This document shows positions 3,991 through 63,858 of a stretch of 64,000 nt of DNA, one piece after another. How positions within the stretch are numbered: the stretch's first letter is position 1; every line of letters starts with the position of its first letter. This DNA is from Escherichia coli (GTDB lineage Bacteria; Pseudomonadota; Gammaproteobacteria; Enterobacterales; Enterobacteriaceae): assembly GCF_044324875.1 (NCBI RefSeq), contig NZ_CP172185.1; one strand, written 5' to 3'. Under the pieces are notes generated by a model. The model had not been told where the DNA came from. It saw only the letters and a list, made by a program, of their open reading frames with translations, and made no database searches. The translations under genes and the position numbers were made by a program.

Positions 3991-4317
3991 ATGACTAAAA
4001 ATACTCGTTTTTCCCCCGAAGTCCGTCAGAGGGCGATTCGTATGGTTCTGGAAAGTCAGGGCGAATATGACTCACAGTGGGCGGCAATTTGTTCCATTGC
4101 CCCAAAGATTGGCTGTACACCGGAGACTCTGCGTGTCTGGGTACGCCAGCATGAGCGGGATACCGGAGGCGGTGATGGCGGGCTCACCACCGCTGAACGT
4201 CAGCGTCTGAAAGAGCTGGAACGTGAAAATCGTGAACTGCGCCGCAGTAACGATATCCTTCGCCAGGCTTCCGCTTATTTTGCGAAGGCGGAGTTCGACC
4301 GCCTCTGGAAAAAGTGA
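3991..4317 (+). CDS. IS629 transposase OrfA (108 aa)
   Basis: Recognised IS3-family OrfA sequence; stop overlaps orfB start in ATGA. Confidence 0.9.
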
Positions 4318-5204
4318 TGCCACTGCTGGATAAGCTGCGTAAGCTGTACGGGGTCGGACCGGTATGCAGTGAACTACATATTGCCCCGTCAACGTATTAC
4401 CACTGTCAGCAACAGCGACATCATCCGGATAAACGCAGTGCCCGTGCGCAGCGCGATGACTGGCTGAAGAAAGAGATACTGCGCGTATACGATGGGAATC
4501 ATCAGGTATACGGTGTGCGTAAAGTCTGGCGTCAGTTGTTACGGGAAGGAATCAGGGTAGCCAGATGTACAGTGGCGCGCCTCATGGCGGTTATGGGACT
4601 TGCCGGTGTTCTCCGGGGTAAAAAGGTCCGCACTACCGTCAGCCGGAAAGCCGTTGCCGCAGGCGACCGCGTAAACCGTCAGTTTGTGGCAGAACGTCCT
4701 GACCAGTTGTGGGTGGCTGATTTTACTTACGTCAGCACATGGCAGGGGGTCGTCTATGTGGCGTTCATCATTGATGTGTTTGCCGGATACATCGTGGGGT
4801 GGCGGGTCTCATCGTCTATGGAAACGACATTCGTGCTGGATGCTCTGGAGCAGGCGTTATGGGCCCGTCGACCGTCCGGCACAGTCCATCACAGTGATAA
4901 AGGTTCTCAGTATGTATCGCTGGCCTACACACAGCGGCTTAAGGAAGCCGGATTACTGGCATCAACAGGAAGTACTGGTGACTCGTATGACAACGCGATG
5001 GCGGAGAGCATCAATGGCCTTTACAAAGCGGAGGTAATACACCGTAAGAGCTGGAAAAACCGGACAGAAGTGGAGCTGGCCACACTCACGTGGGTGGACT
5101 GGTATAACAATCGACGATTGCTGGAAAGGCTGGGCCATATCCCACCGGCAGAAGCAGAAAAAGCTTATTATGCTTCCATCGGAAACGATGATCTGGCAGC
5201 CTGA
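4314..5204 (+). CDS. IS629 transposase OrfB (296 aa, DDE integrase-like catalytic domain)
   Basis: IS3-family OrfB; overlaps orfA by 4 nt. Confidence 0.9.
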
Positions 5205-9133: not shown

Positions 9134-9595
9134 ATGAGTCAGGACAGTAGAGTTTTCTTTCGTATATTCCTCGGTATCGGTCTGGTACTGATCCTCATTT
9201 CTGTTGTTGTCTTTTATAACCAGTTCACCTATAGCAAAGACGCGATTCATACTGAAGGCGTCATTGTTGATACCGTCTGGCACTCCAGTCATTCTCATCG
9301 CACGGGTAAAAATGGTTCGTGGTATCCCGTCGTTGCCTTTCGACCGACGCCTGATTACACGCTAATTTTCAATTCGAGTATCGGCAGCGATTTTTATGAA
9401 GACAGCGAAGGCGATAAAGTTAATGTTTATTATTCTCCAGGGCATCCTGAAAAGGCTGAGATAAATAACCCGTGGGTTAATTTTTTTAAATGGGGGTTTG
9501 TCGGCATTATGGGCGTTATTTTTATCGCCGTCGGTTTATTAATCAGTATGCCCTCCTCTAAAAAGTCACGCAGGAAACGGAAGTCCCGTCCATGA
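9134..9595 (+). CDS. ymfA: Inner membrane protein YmfA (DUF3592)
   Basis: Recognised E. coli YmfA; start chosen to give 153 aa (track ORF starts at 9092). Confidence 0.8.
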
Positions 9596-26529: not shown

Positions 26530-28370
<1,841 letters not shown>

Positions 28371-37539: not shown

Positions 37540-38349
37540 CTAATTCGGGCGCTCACAAAGTGGGGCTAAATATTCATATAACGTTGCTGACGAAAAGGAG
37601 ACATCGCCACAGGCACGTACGGGCATCACTGGCATTAACGCATTACAAATAACCATCTCATCTGCCTGCAACGCCTCCTCCAGCGAGGCTTGCACTTCGA
37701 CAAGCTGATAAGAGGATTGTGCCAGCAAACGGATACAGAATTGTCGCATAATGCCGTTAACACCTGCCTGATCCAGTCGCGGCGTATAAACTACGTTGCC
37801 CTTCCGCCAGAACAAATTAGCCGCACAGCATTCCGTAACCCACCCTTCGCTGTCAAGGACCAGCGCCTCATCAGCGTTTGTCTGCTCAAGATGAGAGCGG
37901 ATCAATACTTGCTCAAGCCGATTAAGATGTTTAATACCTGCAAGATGAGGATTGCGCCCCAGCCGCACCGGGCTTAGCGCCAACGTCATCCCTTCGTTAC
38001 GCAAACGGTCGTAATGTGCGGGATAAACCGTAACGGAGAGAATCCGCGTTGCCGGTCCGCTGTTCAATGTGCTGTACCCTCGCCCGCCACTACCGCGACT
38101 GATCACCACTTTCAGCACACCATTTTGCTGTTCTGCTGCCAGCGTTTTCATCTCTAGTTCAAGCTGAGGCCAGAAGTCACAGGAAATCATCAACCGCTGA
38201 CAAGCATCCTGTAGTCGCTGGATATGCGCCGATAACAAACTGACTTTACCGTCGATAACTCTGGCGGTGGTAAAACAACCATCACCAAACTGCGTTGCCC
38301 GATCGCTTACTGCCAGCGATTCCTGCTTATGACCGTTAATTAAGAACAT
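37540..38349 (-). CDS. pabC: Aminodeoxychorismate lyase PabC
   Basis: 269-aa ORF recognised as PabC. Confidence 0.95.
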
Positions 38350-51626: not shown

Positions 51627-53270
51627 TTAGCGAATGTTAATCAGCGCATCAAAAATCGCGTTTGCCGTCTGCAGAACCTGCGCATTCGCGAGGTAATACT
51701 GCTGAAAACGTTGCAGATTTCCGTACTCCTCATCGAGATTGACACCGGAAATCGACTGCTGCTGATTGGAAAGCTGCGTCACCACATTACCTTGCGTGGT
51801 GCTACTGGTTTTCAACGTCGCGGTTTTATTACCGATATCACTCACTAACGAGGCATAAGCGTCGTTAAAGGATTTCGCACCGCCCACCGTTTTACTGTTG
51901 CTTTGCAGATCGAGCAGGGCCTGACCGTTGCGGTTGTCGCTATCACCCGCATCTTCTGCGCTCGCCATGGCGATTTTCGCTTCGTCGGTGATTAATACAT
52001 CCATGTTGACGATGGCGTCACTTACCGGTTTCAGTGTGAAGCTGTCGTTAACGGCAGGCGTTCCTGTTAACGTCAACTCCAGACCATCAAATGCCACTTT
52101 ACCGTTGGCATCCGGCGTCACCGTAAAAGTGGTATTACTGGCAAGGCGGGTGACCTGCCACTGATTATTATCGAACGAGATTTTGTAATCTGTCGCCAGT
52201 ACCGCGGAGGCATCAGTTACCGTTGCACCGATCGCAACGTCACCTTTGTTTTTCGTGTTTTGCAGAACCGCGGGCTTACCGATAGCAAAGAAATCTTCAC
52301 CAGCATCGCCGTTAGCATCAAATCCGGCTTTGTGTTGGGTGTTGAAAGCCTCGGCAAATGCCAGCGCCAGTTGTCCAAGCGTATTACGCGTCTGGTCAAG
52401 ATCCTGAGAACGGAATGTCAGAATGCCGCCCAGTGACCCGGAATTCAGTAATTTCTCCGGGATCTCAATATTGCCTGCCGTCCCATCAACATAAGCGACA
52501 GTCGTACGAGAAGGGTCGGCGCTGGAAGGAACTGCCGCAAGTTGCCGCGCCGTACTTCCCTGAACCAGTGAGTAGCCATTGGCCATCGTGATATTATAAG
52601 TGCCACCATCCTGAACGCTGACTTCTACGCCAACAATCTGGTTTAATTCGCTCACCAGTTGATCGCGTTGATCCAGCAGATTGTTAGGTGACGCCCCTGC
52701 CCCCACGCCTGTCAGGCGGGAGATTTGATCGTTCAGGCTGGCGATTTGTTTAGCGTAATTGTTGATCTGATCAACGCTGGCACCTATCGCGATATTGACC
52801 TGTTTGTCCTGGTCGCGCAGATATTGATCGGTGGTTTTAAACTGATTCACCAACCCTTCTGATTTCCCAATCAGCGCCTGGCGCGCTGCCGGGTCTTCCG
52901 CGTTACTCACCAGCGTTTGCAGGCTGGTGAAGAAATCCTGCATCTGTATTGCCAGCGAAGAGGTACTGGTGGAGAGCATATTGTCGATTTTCGACATCTG
53001 CTCATAGCGGGCAGTCAGGCCGCTACTTTGCGTCTGCGCCGCACGTAACTGGTTGGTAATAAACGCATCATACTCACGCTGCACACCAGAAACGTAGACG
53101 CCATTGCCAACCCAGCCGCCAGCGCCCAACGTGCTATTGGCCTGCGTCATAATAGTGGTTTGGCGGGTATATCCGGCAACGTTATAGCTGGAGATATTAT
53201 TACTTGCCGTATTTAACGCCGCCTGGGCCGCGTTCAGTCCGCTCATGGCGTTATTGATCAAGCTGGACAT
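51627..53270 (-). CDS. flgK: Flagellar hook-associated protein 1 FlgK
   Basis: 547-aa ORF recognised as FlgK. Confidence 0.95.
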   Translation of the reverse strand: MSSLINNAMSGLNAAQAALNTASNNISSYNVAGYTRQTTIMTQANSTLGAGGWVGNGVYVSGVQREYDAFITNQLRAAQTQSSGLTARYEQMSKIDNMLSTSTSSLAIQMQDFFTSLQTLVSNAEDPAARQALIGKSEGLVNQFKTTDQYLRDQDKQVNIAIGASVDQINNYAKQIASLNDQISRLTGVGAGASPNNLLDQRDQLVSELNQIVGVEVSVQDGGTYNITMANGYSLVQGSTARQLAAVPSSADPSRTTVAYVDGTAGNIEIPEKLLNSGSLGGILTFRSQDLDQTRNTLGQLALAFAEAFNTQHKAGFDANGDAGEDFFAIGKPAVLQNTKNKGDVAIGATVTDASAVLATDYKISFDNNQWQVTRLASNTTFTVTPDANGKVAFDGLELTLTGTPAVNDSFTLKPVSDAIVNMDVLITDEAKIAMASAEDAGDSDNRNGQALLDLQSNSKTVGGAKSFNDAYASLVSDIGNKTATLKTSSTTQGNVVTQLSNQQQSISGVNLDEEYGNLQRFQQYYLANAQVLQTANAIFDALINIR

Positions 53271-53335
53271 GGAGGTTCCTTATAAGCCTTCAATTACAGA
53301 GTATTATCGGCAGCGACCCGCCGGACTTGAGTTAT
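53271..53335 (-). promoter_or_regulatory. Candidate sigma-28 (class III) promoter for flgKL; GCCGATAA -10 element at 53304-53311 on the minus strand
   Basis: GCCGATAA read on the minus strand with a partial TAAAGTTT-like -35 (TCAAGTCC) 11 nt upstream. Confidence 0.5.
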
Positions 53336-54277
53336 TCAGAACAGATTATCAATGTTCATGCTGTAGGTTTTGCTCACCTTGTCGCTTATCGATTTCATCT
53401 GCTGAATCATGTTGGTGAGTTTGCGGGCATAGTGAGGATCGGTGGCATAGCCCGCGTCCTGTAGGGCCTGCGCCCCCTGCTCCGCACTCGCGGCGGTCGT
53501 CACGGCGGCGTAGCGCGGGTTACGCGTTAACAGCCCAACGTAATCCGACAATGCTTCCAGATACGAGCTGTAGACCCGAAACTTCGCTTTTACTTTCTTC
53601 GCTTCGCCATTTTCATATTCAGTCGTGGTGATTTCAGTGACTGGCCCTTTCCAGTTGCCAGAGGCTTTGACGCCAAACAGGTTATAGCTCGGCTCGCCGT
53701 TTTCACGGCGGATTTGCCGTTGTCCCCAGCCAGATTCCAGCGCCGCCTGAGCGAGGATCAAATGATGTGGCACACCACTTTGCTGGCTTGCCAGTTGGGC
53801 TGGCAGCGAGAGTTGCGCGAGGAATGCTTTACTGTCACCCGGCAGCGAATCATCGTAGTTACGTGGTACGGCCTTTTGCACCAGCTGCGAAAGCGTCTGA
53901 TTTTGATAACGCACCACGGTTTCGAGCGGGAATTTCATCGGTGCTGCTGGCGTGGACTCCTCTGGCAATGGTTGTTCTGGCGTCATCTGTTTAACCATCA
54001 TCTCTGCCAGCCCCAGACCTTTGCCCGCCGTCATCTGTTGAGCAATCTGCTGGTCATACATACTGGTATACAGGCGAGTGTGCTCGCTGCTGAACAGGCC
54101 ATCTTTTGGTAAAGCGTCGCGCATGCTTTTCAACATCATCTGCACGAACATCCCTTCCACCTGGCGGGCCACCGGACGGATATTTGCCGCCGGATCTTCG
54201 CCCGCTTTCGCCTTAAGTTCGTTGAGCGATTGTGCATCCCAGGCCGCACTTGCCAGTAGTTTGCTGTCGCTGATCAT
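53336..54277 (-). CDS. flgJ: Flagellar rod assembly protein / peptidoglycan hydrolase FlgJ
   Basis: Recognised FlgJ; start at MISDSKLL gives 313 aa. Confidence 0.95.
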   Translation of the reverse strand: MISDSKLLASAAWDAQSLNELKAKAGEDPAANIRPVARQVEGMFVQMMLKSMRDALPKDGLFSSEHTRLYTSMYDQQIAQQMTAGKGLGLAEMMVKQMTPEQPLPEESTPAAPMKFPLETVVRYQNQTLSQLVQKAVPRNYDDSLPGDSKAFLAQLSLPAQLASQQSGVPHHLILAQAALESGWGQRQIRRENGEPSYNLFGVKASGNWKGPVTEITTTEYENGEAKKVKAKFRVYSSYLEALSDYVGLLTRNPRYAAVTTAASAEQGAQALQDAGYATDPHYARKLTNMIQQMKSISDKVSKTYSMNIDNLF

Positions 54278-55377
54278 CAGATGATTTCCAGTTTTGCCCG
54301 CAGACATCCCGCACTTTGCATTGATTGCAGTATGGACATCAGATCCATCGGCGTAGCGCCCAGCGCATTGAGCGCACGCACCACGTTATTGAGGCTGGCG
54401 CTGGAACGTACGCTTTGCAGCGAACCGCCGCTCTGGCGTAAATCGATCTGCGTTTGTGGAGTAACCACAGTCTGCCCACCACCAAACGGTGTATCTGGCT
54501 GGCTGACATTGGCCTGGCGATTAACTGTTACTGAAAGATTTCCCTGCGCTACCGCGCAGCTGTCGAGGGTCACTTCGCGATTCATCACCACCGAACCGGT
54601 GCGCGAGTTAATCACTACTTTAGCGTCCTGCGGGGTAACATTAACCTGCATATTCTGGATATCGGCAAGGAAACGGACCTGGGAACTGTTGCCACTTGGT
54701 ACGCGCACCTGAATAGTCCGCGCATCTAACGCGGTGGCGCTGCCATATCCACGCACGCGGTTGATGGTGTCAGCGATTTGCTGCGCCATGCTGAAATCTT
54801 CGTCGTTAAGTTGCAAATTAAGGGTATTCCCGACGCCAAACTGGCTGGGCAATTCACGTTCAATAACCGCACCATTGGTGATCCGTCCACCGTTCAGTTG
54901 GTTCACCTGAACACTGCTACCGCCAGCGGAGGCTCCTGCGCCGCCAACCAGAATATTGCCCTGCGCCAGCGCATACACCTGACTGTCAACGCCCTTAAGC
55001 GGTGTCATCAACAACGTACCGCCACGCAAGCTTTTGGCATTACCCATGGAAGATACCACCACATCGATGGTTTGCCCCTGGCGTCCAAACGGCGGAAGTG
55101 ACGCCGTCACCATTACCGCAGCGACGTTTTTTAGCTGCATATTGGTGCCCGTCGGAACGGTAATTCCCAGCTGTGAGAGCATGTTATTAAGCGTTTGTGT
55201 GGTAAACGGCGTCTGGGTTGTCTGGTCACCAGTTCCATCCAGCCCCACCACCAGGCCATAGCCAATCAGTGAGTTTTGCCTTACCCCCTGAACACTGGTG
55301 AGATCGCGAATACGCTCAGCCTGAGCCGCCGTGGTAACCAGTAAAAGAATTAATGCAGAGAGAAATTTAATCACCAC
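54277..55377 (-). CDS. flgI: Flagellar P-ring protein FlgI
   Basis: 366-aa ORF with signal peptide. Confidence 0.95.
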
Positions 55378-56136: not shown

Positions 56137-56937
<801 letters not shown>

Positions 56938-57055
56938 TTAGTGACAAGCAGAGCAGAAGCACGCGACGGTGCGCATTTCCCCTCACCCTAACCTCTCCCA
57001 AAATGGGCGAGAGAATAGTCCGCGCGCTTTTATTGCAATGTCATCAATCGTTTAA

Positions 57056-60175: not shown

Positions 60176-60592
60176 TTAATTTCCGCTCTGTAAAACGTTC
60201 ATCATGCCTTTGATTTGCCCGCTCAACGCGCTAAGGCTCATCTGGTATTGCAGGCTGTTATCGGCAAACTGGGTACGTTCGCGATCCATATCGACGGTAT
60301 TACCGTCAAGCGAAGGCTGGTCCGGAATACGGTATTGCAGTTCTGCGGTAGGAGGCGTCAGCGCCTGCGCCGGAATGTGTTGCGTTGAGGTCATCGTCAG
60401 TGCAACCACGCTTGTTGCATCCCGTCCACGTTGCATGACTTTTTTAAGTTCACTGGCAAAATCGATATCGCGCGCCTGATAACCAGGGGTATCGGCATTG
60501 GCGATGTTTGCTGCCAGCACTTCCTGACGCTGGGCGCGCAGATTGAGCGCCTCTTGTTGAAAACGTAAGGCGGCGTCGAGCTTATCGAGCAT
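60176..60592 (-). CDS. flgB: Flagellar rod protein FlgB
   Basis: 138-aa ORF recognised as FlgB. Confidence 0.97.
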
Positions 60593-60746
60593 ATCTCCTC
60601 CGCAGGTATCAAAATTCTGCCATCAGCTTAAATGCCTTTACGCGCGCGTTATCGGCGGAATAAACGCAAAATGGGTCGCTATTTATGCCGTTGATGGTCA
60701 TTGCGGACAGGTACAATTCACGTTGTAGAAATGGCAGGGGGCGAAA
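60593..60746. promoter_or_regulatory. Divergent flgB / flgA class II flagellar promoter region (FlhDC-dependent by established knowledge)
   Basis: 154-bp gap between divergent flgB and flgA; no motifs verified here. Confidence 0.5.
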
Positions 60747-61406
60747 ATGCTGGCAATAAAACGTAGCGTGGCGATCATCGCGATACTGTTCAGTCCGTTA
60801 AGTGCGGCGAGCAATCTCACATCGCAATTGCACACCTTTTTTAGCGCCCAGCTCGCGGGGGTAAGTGATGAGGTTCGTGTTTCTATTCGTACAGCGCCCA
60901 ATCTACTACCGCCGTGCGAGCAGCCATTGCTTTCGATGAGCAATAATTCCCGCCTGTGGGGCAATGTGAATGTGTTGGCACGCTGCGGTAACGACAAACG
61001 ATATTTACAGGTTAATGTGCAGGCCACAGGAAATTATGTGGTTGCCGCAATGCCCATTGTGCGGGGAGGAAAGCTGGAAGCTGGCAATGTCAAACTGAAA
61101 CGCGGACGGCTGGACACCTTGCCACCGCGTACGGTGCTGGATATCAATCAACTTGTTGATGCCGTTAGCCTGCGCGATCTATCACCCGATCAACCTATCC
61201 AGTTAACCCAGTTTCGCCAGGCATGGCGGGTAAAAGCGGGACAACGCGTCAACGTGATCGCCAGCGGTGATGGGTTTAGCGCCAACGCAGAAGGTCAGGC
61301 GCTGAACAATGCTGCCGTCGCACAGAATGCGCGGGTGCGCATGGTATCGGGACAGGTGGTCAGCGGCGTTGTTGATGCAGATGGGAATATTCTTATAAAC
61401 CTGTAA
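60747..61406 (+). CDS. flgA: Flagellar P-ring assembly chaperone FlgA
   Basis: 219-aa ORF with signal peptide. Confidence 0.95.
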   Translation: MLAIKRSVAIIAILFSPLSAASNLTSQLHTFFSAQLAGVSDEVRVSIRTAPNLLPPCEQPLLSMSNNSRLWGNVNVLARCGNDKRYLQVNVQATGNYVVAAMPIVRGGKLEAGNVKLKRGRLDTLPPRTVLDINQLVDAVSLRDLSPDQPIQLTQFRQAWRVKAGQRVNVIASGDGFSANAEGQALNNAAVAQNARVRMVSGQVVSGVVDADGNILINL

Positions 61407-61411
61407 GCTGT

Positions 61412-61438
61412 TAAAGATTACCCGTCCCTTGCCGATAA
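61412..61438 (+). promoter_or_regulatory. Sigma-28 (FliA) class III promoter of flgMN: TAAAGATT, 11-nt spacer, GCCGATAA
   Basis: -35 at 61412-61419 and -10 at 61431-61438 read from sequence; close match to consensus TAAAGTTT-N11-GCCGATAA. Confidence 0.85.
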
Positions 61439-61481
61439 ATAAGCAACACATGATAAAAGCGCCCTCAATGAGGAATAAACC

Positions 61482-61775
61482 ATGAGTATTGATCGCACTT
61501 CGCCTCTGAAGCCCGTAAGCACCGTTCAACCGCGCGAAACCATTGACGCGGCGGTAACGAACACCCGGGCGGCAAAAACAACCGCCTCCACCAGCACCAG
61601 TGTGACGTTAAGCGACGCGCAAGCAAAACTGATGCAACCCGGCAGCAGTGATATCAATCTTGAACGTGTCGAAGCGTTAAAACTGGCGATTCGTAACGGT
61701 GAACTAAAAATGGACACCGGCAAAATTGCCGATGCGCTGATCAACGAAGCGCAGCAAGACTTGCAGAGTAACTGA
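61482..61775 (+). CDS. flgM: Anti-sigma-28 factor FlgM
   Basis: 97-aa ORF recognised as FlgM. Confidence 0.97.
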
Positions 61776-61779
61776 TCGT

Positions 61780-62196
61780 ATGACGCGTCTTGCAGAGATC
61801 CTCGACCAGATGTCCGCTGTGCTTAACGATCTCAAAACGGTAATGGATCAAGAGCAGCAACATCTCTCTATGGGGCAGATCAACGGCAGTCAGTTGCAAT
61901 GGATTACAGAACAAAAAAGCTCTCTGCTGGCGACGCTGGATTACCTCGAACAGTTACGCAGGAAAGAACCCAATTCAGCAAATAGCGTTGATATTAGTCA
62001 ACGCTGGCAGGAAATTACTGTGAAAACGCAGCAACTACGCCAAATGAATCAACATAACGGCTGGTTACTGGAAGGACAGATTGAGCGCAACCAACAAGCA
62101 CTGGAAATGTTGAAACCGCATCAGGAACCGACGCTATATGGAGCGAACGGTCAGACCTCAACAACCCATCGCGGCGGTAAAAAGATTTCGATCTGA
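61780..62196 (+). CDS. flgN: Flagellar export chaperone FlgN
   Basis: 138-aa ORF recognised as FlgN. Confidence 0.95.
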   Translation: MTRLAEILDQMSAVLNDLKTVMDQEQQHLSMGQINGSQLQWITEQKSSLLATLDYLEQLRRKEPNSANSVDISQRWQEITVKTQQLRQMNQHNGWLLEGQIERNQQALEMLKPHQEPTLYGANGQTSTTHRGGKKISI

Positions 62197-62235
62197 AGAT
62201 TATCTCCGGCCTGCACTGCAGGCCGGAATGCATTG

Positions 62236-63858
<1,623 letters not shown>

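Follow-up and report, generated by a model that had tools for sequence, protein, structure and literature searches.

Class 3 flagellar promoters located inside the flg gene cluster are known from Escherichia coli K-12 and from Salmonella enterica. In K-12, the flgMN and flgKL promoters are counted among eight well-characterized sigma-28 promoters, for which the consensus TAAAGTTT-n11-GCCGATAA has been given (Hollands 2009, PMC2859248). FliA ChIP-seq identified the motif TAAAGATTACCCGTCCCTTGCCGATAAA at flgMN and the motif TCAAGTCCGGCGGGTCGCTGCCGATAAT at flgKL, with scores of 48 and 47 fold-above-threshold, respectively (Fitzgerald 2014, Table 2, PMC4183435), and genomic SELEX with the RpoF (sigma-28) holoenzyme in vitro yielded a signal of 15.0 for the flgA/flgM spacer and of 27.2 for the flgJ/flgK spacer (Shimada 2017, PMC5493296). 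The flgM and flgK class 3 promoters of S. enterica (Kutsukake and Ide 1995; Wozniak and Hughes 2008; Wozniak et al. 2010) have the same element architecture and the same position, and mutagenesis of the orthologous Salmonella flgM promoter showed sigma-28-dependent transcription to require -35 positions (cited in Hollands 2009, PMC2859248). The logic of overlapping class 2 and class 3 operons is also the same in Salmonella as in E. coli. Beyond the flg cluster, the promoters of tar, fliC, motA, tsr, ycgR, yhjH, and flxA possess the same TAAAG-type -35 element, the 11-nt spacer, and a GCCGATAA-type -10 element; these are, however, sole promoters whose genes collapse in a fliA deletion, whereas the dual-regulated flgM and flgK show hardly any change. 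FliA sites at operons with FlhDC-dependent transcription are likewise found at fliDST and fliLMNOPQR, and the -35 element of fliL is of the TCAAG type like that of flgK. At fliA, fliL, and fliD, both promoters overlap in a single regulatory region, whereas the class 3 promoters of flgM and flgK are internal to a longer class 2 unit.

The window, i.e., the whole 64-kb stretch of E. coli DNA that was analyzed, carries the flg cluster between approximately 47 and 64 kb, in an orientation that is reversed in comparison to K-12. On its plus strand, rne (47282-50467) is located ahead of the cluster, followed on the minus strand by flgL (50662-51615; hook-filament junction protein 2), flgK (51627-53270, with the ATG at 53270; hook-filament junction protein 1), flgJ (53336-54307), and the genes onward to flgB (60176-60592). 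The plus strand then encodes flgA (60747-61406, with the stop codon ending at 61406), flgM (61482-61775; anti-sigma-28 factor), and flgN (61780-62196; the FlgK/FlgL export chaperone, co-transcribed with flgM), before murJ follows on the minus strand (62236-63810). The identities of flgA, flgM, flgN, flgJ, flgK, and flgL were confirmed from the open reading frames and the annotation of matching E. coli records; fliA lies outside the window. A 1.7-kb query around flgM finds a match in 5425 of 5426 complete E. coli genomes, the best of which is 99.5% identical, and the 17-kb flg segment shares about 97.9% identity with K-12 MG1655.

Several features of the window are peripheral to the two promoters. 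The flgF-flgG spacer (56920-57055) is unrelated to its K-12 counterpart, having an insert with CTCGCCCATTTTGGGAGAGGTTAGGGTGAGGG where K-12 has a REP-like GCCGGATAAGGCG...CCGGC element; for the K-12 flgF/flgG spacer, a minor RpoF SELEX peak (6.7) has been reported (Shimada 2017, PMC5493296). From position 1 to about 8000, mobile DNA adjoins potD. Among the genes annotated in its best E. coli matches are those for an integrase, an exonuclease, and an IS3-family transposase; Rfam matches are isrK (704-780), a C4 antisense RNA (805-892), and an ALIL frameshift pseudoknot (4272-4388), and only four genomes cover 80% or more of the initial 14 kb. Beside rne, the small RNA SraB (44892-45060, minus strand) and the RNase E 5'UTR autoregulatory element (46921-47257, plus strand) both score above the Rfam gathering score in the expected place. 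Between the convergent genes flgN and murJ, a perfect 11-bp inverted repeat (TCCGGCCTGCA c TGCAGGCCGGA; 62205-62227), which has a T run on neither strand, is probably a 3'-end hairpin common to both.

In front of flgM, direct reading together with a pattern search identifies on the plus strand a -35 element TAAAGATT (61412-61419), an 11-nt spacer ACCCGTCCCTT (61420-61430), and a -10 element GCCGATAA (61431-61438). This arrangement deviates by a single mismatch from TAAAGTTT-N11-GCCGATAA, corresponding to 15 of 16 matched positions, and is situated wholly within the 75-nt flgA-flgM spacer, co-oriented with flgM. An earlier note on this DNA had proposed a near-consensus sigma-28 promoter TAAAGATT-N11-GCCGATAA at 61412-61438, about 45 bp ahead of flgM. 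Its position is correct, the gap between the end of the -10 block and the ATG (61482) being 43 nt, and the wording is borne out by the consensus match as well as by the identity with the mapped FliA promoter of K-12.

The corresponding site of flgK is located on the minus strand, where the same two approaches identify the -35 element TCAAGTCC (53323-53330) and the -10 element GCCGATAA (53304-53311), the latter exactly where a second GCCGATAA upstream of flgK had been proposed. Again, the two elements are 11 nt apart. The site matches 13 of the 16 consensus positions, with all three mismatches falling into the -35 block (5 of 8 matches). It lies within the 65-nt flgJ-flgK spacer, co-oriented with flgK, and the end of its -10 element is 33 nt away from the ATG. 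The CGA core of the -10 element is preserved at flgM as well as at flgK.

Both -35 elements are part of K-12 FliA ChIP motifs, and the two 28-mers of the window are letter-for-letter those of the K-12 flgMN and flgKL operons. The two full intergenic spacers are 100% identical to K-12, and the flgM and flgK promoters of K-12 are flanked by the same genes in the same orientation. While the promoters thus show no difference, the region around them diverges from K-12 by about 2%, and the flgF-flgG spacer of the host is a different one. The two sites are almost certainly the class 3 FliA promoters PflgM and PflgK of E. coli. The class III assignment made in the earlier note is thereby upheld by identity with experimentally mapped promoters; both of these were already known, nothing in them is new, and the published picture is reproduced. 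Salmonella is further removed, differing in the spacer letters, in the flgM -10 element, which is GCCGATGA, and in the leader, which has 52 nt in one locus (L005) versus 36 nt in Escherichia. Two Salmonella loci (L005 and L029) carry TAAAGATT-N11-GCCGATGA before flgM, and L005 carries TCAAGTCC-N11-GCCGATAA before flgK.

How far the two sites stand out from chance depends on the yardstick. When the window is searched for TAAAGTTT-N11-GCCGATAA with up to three mismatches, three places are found, namely those of flgM and flgK and one inside flgD, versus 0.54 expected. The bare GCCGATAA octamer occurs 11 times versus 2.6 times expected from dinucleotide shuffles; under an order-5 Markov model, the expectation rises to 6.5, and 6 of 100 simulations reach 11. 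Enrichment of the octamer was consequently rejected as promoter evidence, because most of the excess is accounted for by higher-order composition. A weight matrix of 28 columns was built from the 23 other FliA ChIP-seq motifs scoring >4 (Fitzgerald 2014, Table 2), with flgMN and flgKL excluded, and its null distribution was taken from 200 simulated windows, equaling 12.8 million positions. The flgM site scores 27.9 bits, which is rank 1 in the window, is reached by none of the 12.8 million simulated positions, and falls within the top of the range of the self-scored training sites (9.1-28.8 bits). The flgK site scores 16.3 bits and takes rank 6; a simulated 64-kb window yields 0.22 such scores on average, so that the flgK site is not singled out window-wide by its sequence and exceeds chance only when its position is considered. 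For a 65-nt spacer and the correct strand, the expectation drops to 6.5e-5. The designation of the flgK site as the weaker candidate is therefore apt with regard to the consensus match (16.3 versus 27.9 bits), but neither with regard to occupancy in ChIP (47 versus 48) nor with regard to in vitro binding in SELEX (27.2 versus 15.0).

It might be argued that one or both motifs are chance matches devoid of promoter activity, most plausibly that of flgK with its 5/8 -35 block. Six positions of the window reach at least 16.25 bits versus the 0.22 expected, four of them, apart from flgM and flgK, being without a K-12 ChIP peak, and the GCCGATAA octamer is common in the DNA of the window. This is countered by the small expectation for the correct strand of the spacer, by the retention of the site in every flgK locus examined, and by a ChIP score of 47 combined with the higher SELEX signal of the two sites. 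In addition, no more than 5 of 77 loci keep the exact octamer upstream of flgB that serves as a control. A chance origin has next to no probability, and for K-12 it is already refuted by binding to the identical sequence.

The control octamer is the GCCGATAA at 60649-60656 on the minus strand, 56 nt upstream of flgB, which was considered as a third FliA promoter and rejected. Its -35 block matches at only 4 of 8 positions, no ChIP peak is present, and flgB is not rescued by FliA (Fitzgerald 2014). At the loci where the octamer is not exact, GGCGATAA, GACGATAA, or AGCGATAA is found instead. It resides within the FlhDC-dependent class 2 region, CGATAA being kept among the loci; it is a coincidental match and as such a useful negative control.

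The flgD-internal site (59358-59332, minus strand) reads CAAAGTTA-N11-ACCGATAA on the sense strand over the codons for DKVTATITDK and scores 17.5 bits. The same 27-mer is present in K-12, where no FliA ChIP peak is found at this site, and 30 of 80 enterobacterial loci pass the threshold. Constraint on the protein could have given rise to this site as a by-product; alternatively, it could act as a very weak promoter within the gene. Three further positions of at least 16.25 bits (27596-27623 and 9497-9524 on the minus strand, 37734-37761 on the plus strand) are without a FliA ChIP peak in the collinear K-12 interval, although 9497-9524 may fall outside this interval owing to the divergence from K-12 at the left end of the window. 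Codon-driven composition may account for the three positions, or they may be very weak intragenic sites.

Conservation was assessed on 80 loci, which were anchored on the FlgM protein in order to keep the search independent of the promoter; 79 of them were usable for flgM. They are from Citrobacter, Salmonella, Enterobacter, Buttiauxella, Lelliottia, Leclercia, Cedecea, Kosakonia, Phytobacter, Atlantibacter, Yokenella, Trabulsiella, other Escherichia species, and further genera. Upstream of flgM, TAAAG[AG][AT][AT]-N11-GCCGAT[AG]N is found in all 79 usable Enterobacteriaceae loci, with both TAAAG and GCCGAT being invariant in the 75 distinct upstream sequences that these loci provide. The spacer measures 11 nt in 79/79 loci, yet its letters vary freely, with a per-column identity to the window of 0-70%. 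Upstream of flgK, TCAAGT[C/T/A][C/T]-N11-G[C/T]CGATAA occurs in 45 of 45 directly anchored loci, again with unconstrained spacers; over 63 distinct sequences, one of them misaligned, TCAAGT is 90-100% conserved per column. A scan of 1.43 Mb of related DNA on both strands, requiring at least 5/8 matches in the -35 element, at least 7/8 in the -10 element, and an 11-nt spacer, returned 236 sites, of which 142 fall at the positions of the two promoters (79 for flgM, 63 for flgK), 30 are at one flgD position, and the rest are scattered. Within E. coli, an identity to the window of at least 99% is found for the two segments with the promoters in 5286 of 5425 and 5378 of 5424 genomes, while the surrounding 1.7 kb is at least 99% identical in only 589 of the 5425 matching records.

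Since conservation alone cannot name the ligand, the blocks could in principle be kept for another reason, for instance as an RNA element in the read-through transcript or as the site of another protein, their sigma-28 likeness being incidental. Other blocks in the vicinity are indeed invariant as well, one of them being CCCTCnATGAGGA, which surrounds the ribosome-binding site of flgM. The conserved columns are, however, exactly the two sigma-28 elements with a fixed but unconstrained gap of 11 nt, at two unrelated loci; FliA ChIP-seq and holoenzyme SELEX peaks coincide with the same sequences, and the mutagenesis of the Salmonella flgM -35 element (cited in Hollands 2009) points in the same direction. 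Published binding data already contradict such an explanation, which is deemed very improbable in comparison to recognition by FliA.

With recognition by FliA as the preferred reading, the flgK -35 element deserves comment. Its core differs from the consensus at the second position (TCAAGT versus TAAAGT), and to this extent it may be called degenerate, as was done in the earlier note. The core TCAAGT with its non-consensus C nevertheless recurs without exception in the 45 directly anchored loci from many enterobacterial genera, at least 90% of which also keep the preceding C. Retention of the non-consensus C across genera may point to selection rather than mere degeneracy. The flgK -35 element might be deliberately sub-optimal, for instance to tune when flgKL is expressed in relation to the remaining class 3 operons, or might have a second function such as an overlapping signal, but this is a speculative and rather unlikely proposition.

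Both promoters are preceded by class 2 transcription units. The divergent flgA/flgB class 2 (FlhDC-dependent) promoter region (60593-60746) is identical to that of K-12 at 153 of 154 positions, and the center of the K-12 FlhDC ChIP peak (1130152 in NC_000913.2, Fitzgerald 2014) maps to approximately position 60682 of the window. No terminator-like site was found on the coding strand of the flgA-flgM and flgJ-flgK spacers; a sigma-70 promoter reading of both spacers was rejected, as no sigma-70-like promoter is present on the relevant strands. Class 2 transcription would read into flgM and flgK because no terminator intervenes, and with the FlhDC region upstream, the two gene pairs qualify as parts of dual class 2/class 3 overlapping operons. 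This overlapping-operon picture (flgAMN/flgMN and flgB-L/flgKL) is the published one: in K-12, the overlapping flgAMN and flgMN operons have been confirmed, and read-through from flgB-J into flgKL has been detected by RT-PCR (Fitzgerald 2014, PMC4183435).

How much the class 3 promoters contribute is a separate matter. Overexpression of fliA in an flhD deletion restores expression of flgM and flgK, but not of flgA and flgB (Fitzgerald 2014, PMC4183435). In the fliA deletion of K-12, expression changes from 451 to 318 for flgMN and from 318 to 138 for flgKL (Table 2 of the same study); the mRNA changes of flgM and flgK are modest and not significant, and according to the authors FliA contributes little to dual-regulated transcripts under the conditions of the study (Fitzgerald 2014, PMC4183435). 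Expression independent of the class II promoters, as postulated in the earlier note, hence exists as a capacity, whereas in wild-type culture the loss of fliA has only a modest effect. From this modest drop it follows that the class 3 share in standard culture is small and that class 2 read-through dominates under K-12 laboratory conditions. It is accordingly quite conceivable, albeit not the favored view, that PflgM and PflgK are genuine FliA promoters of minor physiological weight, with most transcription coming from flgA/flgB read-through and the class 3 promoters mattering only at high free FliA, during swarming, or in the repair of sheared filaments. The expression values, the assessment by the authors, and the lack of terminators between flgA and flgM or flgJ and flgK speak in its favor. 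On the other side, ChIP occupancy is high at both sites (48 and 47), the elements do not vary across dozens of genera, which implies selection, and levels of FlgO, which is processed from the flgL 3'UTR, depend on sigma-28 (Melamed 2023, PMC10578931). A minor role would refine rather than replace the explanation of the two sites as class 3 FliA promoters. In the window, a homologue of the FlgO small RNA is found in the flgL 3'UTR (50585-50659, minus strand; 98.7% identity over 75 nt to K-12 flgO, NC_000913.3), and its end has a terminator hairpin and a T run.

The start site of flgM can be approached from the fusion of Romilly 2020, which comprises flgM nucleotides +1 to 105 and ends after codon 23; subtraction of 69 from 105 gives a leader of 36 nt. 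This would place +1 at the A in position 61446 of the plus strand, 8 nt after the -10 octamer and within the span of 7-10 nt set as a test in the earlier note, the placement being derived indirectly from the description of the fusion. In 57 of 66 distinct sequences, the flgM leader starts with AC at that offset. For comparison, the numbering of the aer promoter implies a start 6 nt after the octamer (Hollands 2009, PMC2859248), versus 8 nt for flgM. By analogy, the flgK transcript should start near 53295-53297.

The predicted flgM leader (61446-61481, plus strand) was compared among loci L002-L081. It is 36 nt long in Escherichia and 36-38 nt in a few Buttiauxella, whereas Salmonella, Citrobacter, Enterobacter, and the majority of the remaining genera have leaders of 50-59 nt, in which the additional 17 or so nucleotides contain small hairpins of differing sequence. 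At the flgM ribosome-binding site, CCCTCAATGAGGA (61462-61474, plus strand) is nearly invariant (CCTCnATGAGGA) in the 75 distinct upstream sequences. The possibility that the class 3 leader of flgM contains a conserved RNA structure was considered and rejected: RNAalifold gives only an invariant 4-bp CCUC/GAGG hairpin, which takes in Shine-Dalgarno bases, with zero covariation, covariation being impossible because these bases never vary. Single-sequence folds of the leader are no better than those of shuffles (z-scores of -1.6 to +0.6), and a conserved structure is without statistical support in loci L002-L081. The shorter leader of Escherichia might alter a class-3-specific translational control of FlgM, an idea that has to be regarded as improbable to the same degree as that of a selected sub-optimal flgK -35 element.

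Summarizing, the locus would operate as follows. RNA polymerase containing FliA would recognize the -35 element (TAAAGATT or TCAAGTCC) and the extended -10 element GCCGATAA, exactly 11 nt apart, and would initiate a few nucleotides downstream. Both promoters are embedded in longer class 2 operons, i.e., flgAMN and flgBCDEFGHIJ extended into KL, which are driven by FlhDC and sigma-70 from the region 60593-60746, giving each gene pair two inputs. FlgM would keep FliA inactive until the completed hook-basal body exports FlgM and thereby frees FliA. Freed FliA would then fire PflgM, resulting in more anti-sigma factor, which constitutes negative feedback, and in the FlgN chaperone; it would equally fire PflgK, resulting in FlgK, FlgL, and the 3'UTR-derived FlgO. 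This timing logic is that of the established Salmonella/E. coli flagellar hierarchy. Judging from the sequence, both promoters would be active in this strain. They are textbook regulatory sites, and current understanding is unchanged by them. The class 3 flgM promoter closes the feedback loop between FliA and FlgM, through which the expression of flagellar genes is tied to assembly, and the class 3 flgK promoter supplies the junction proteins and FlgO after hook completion.
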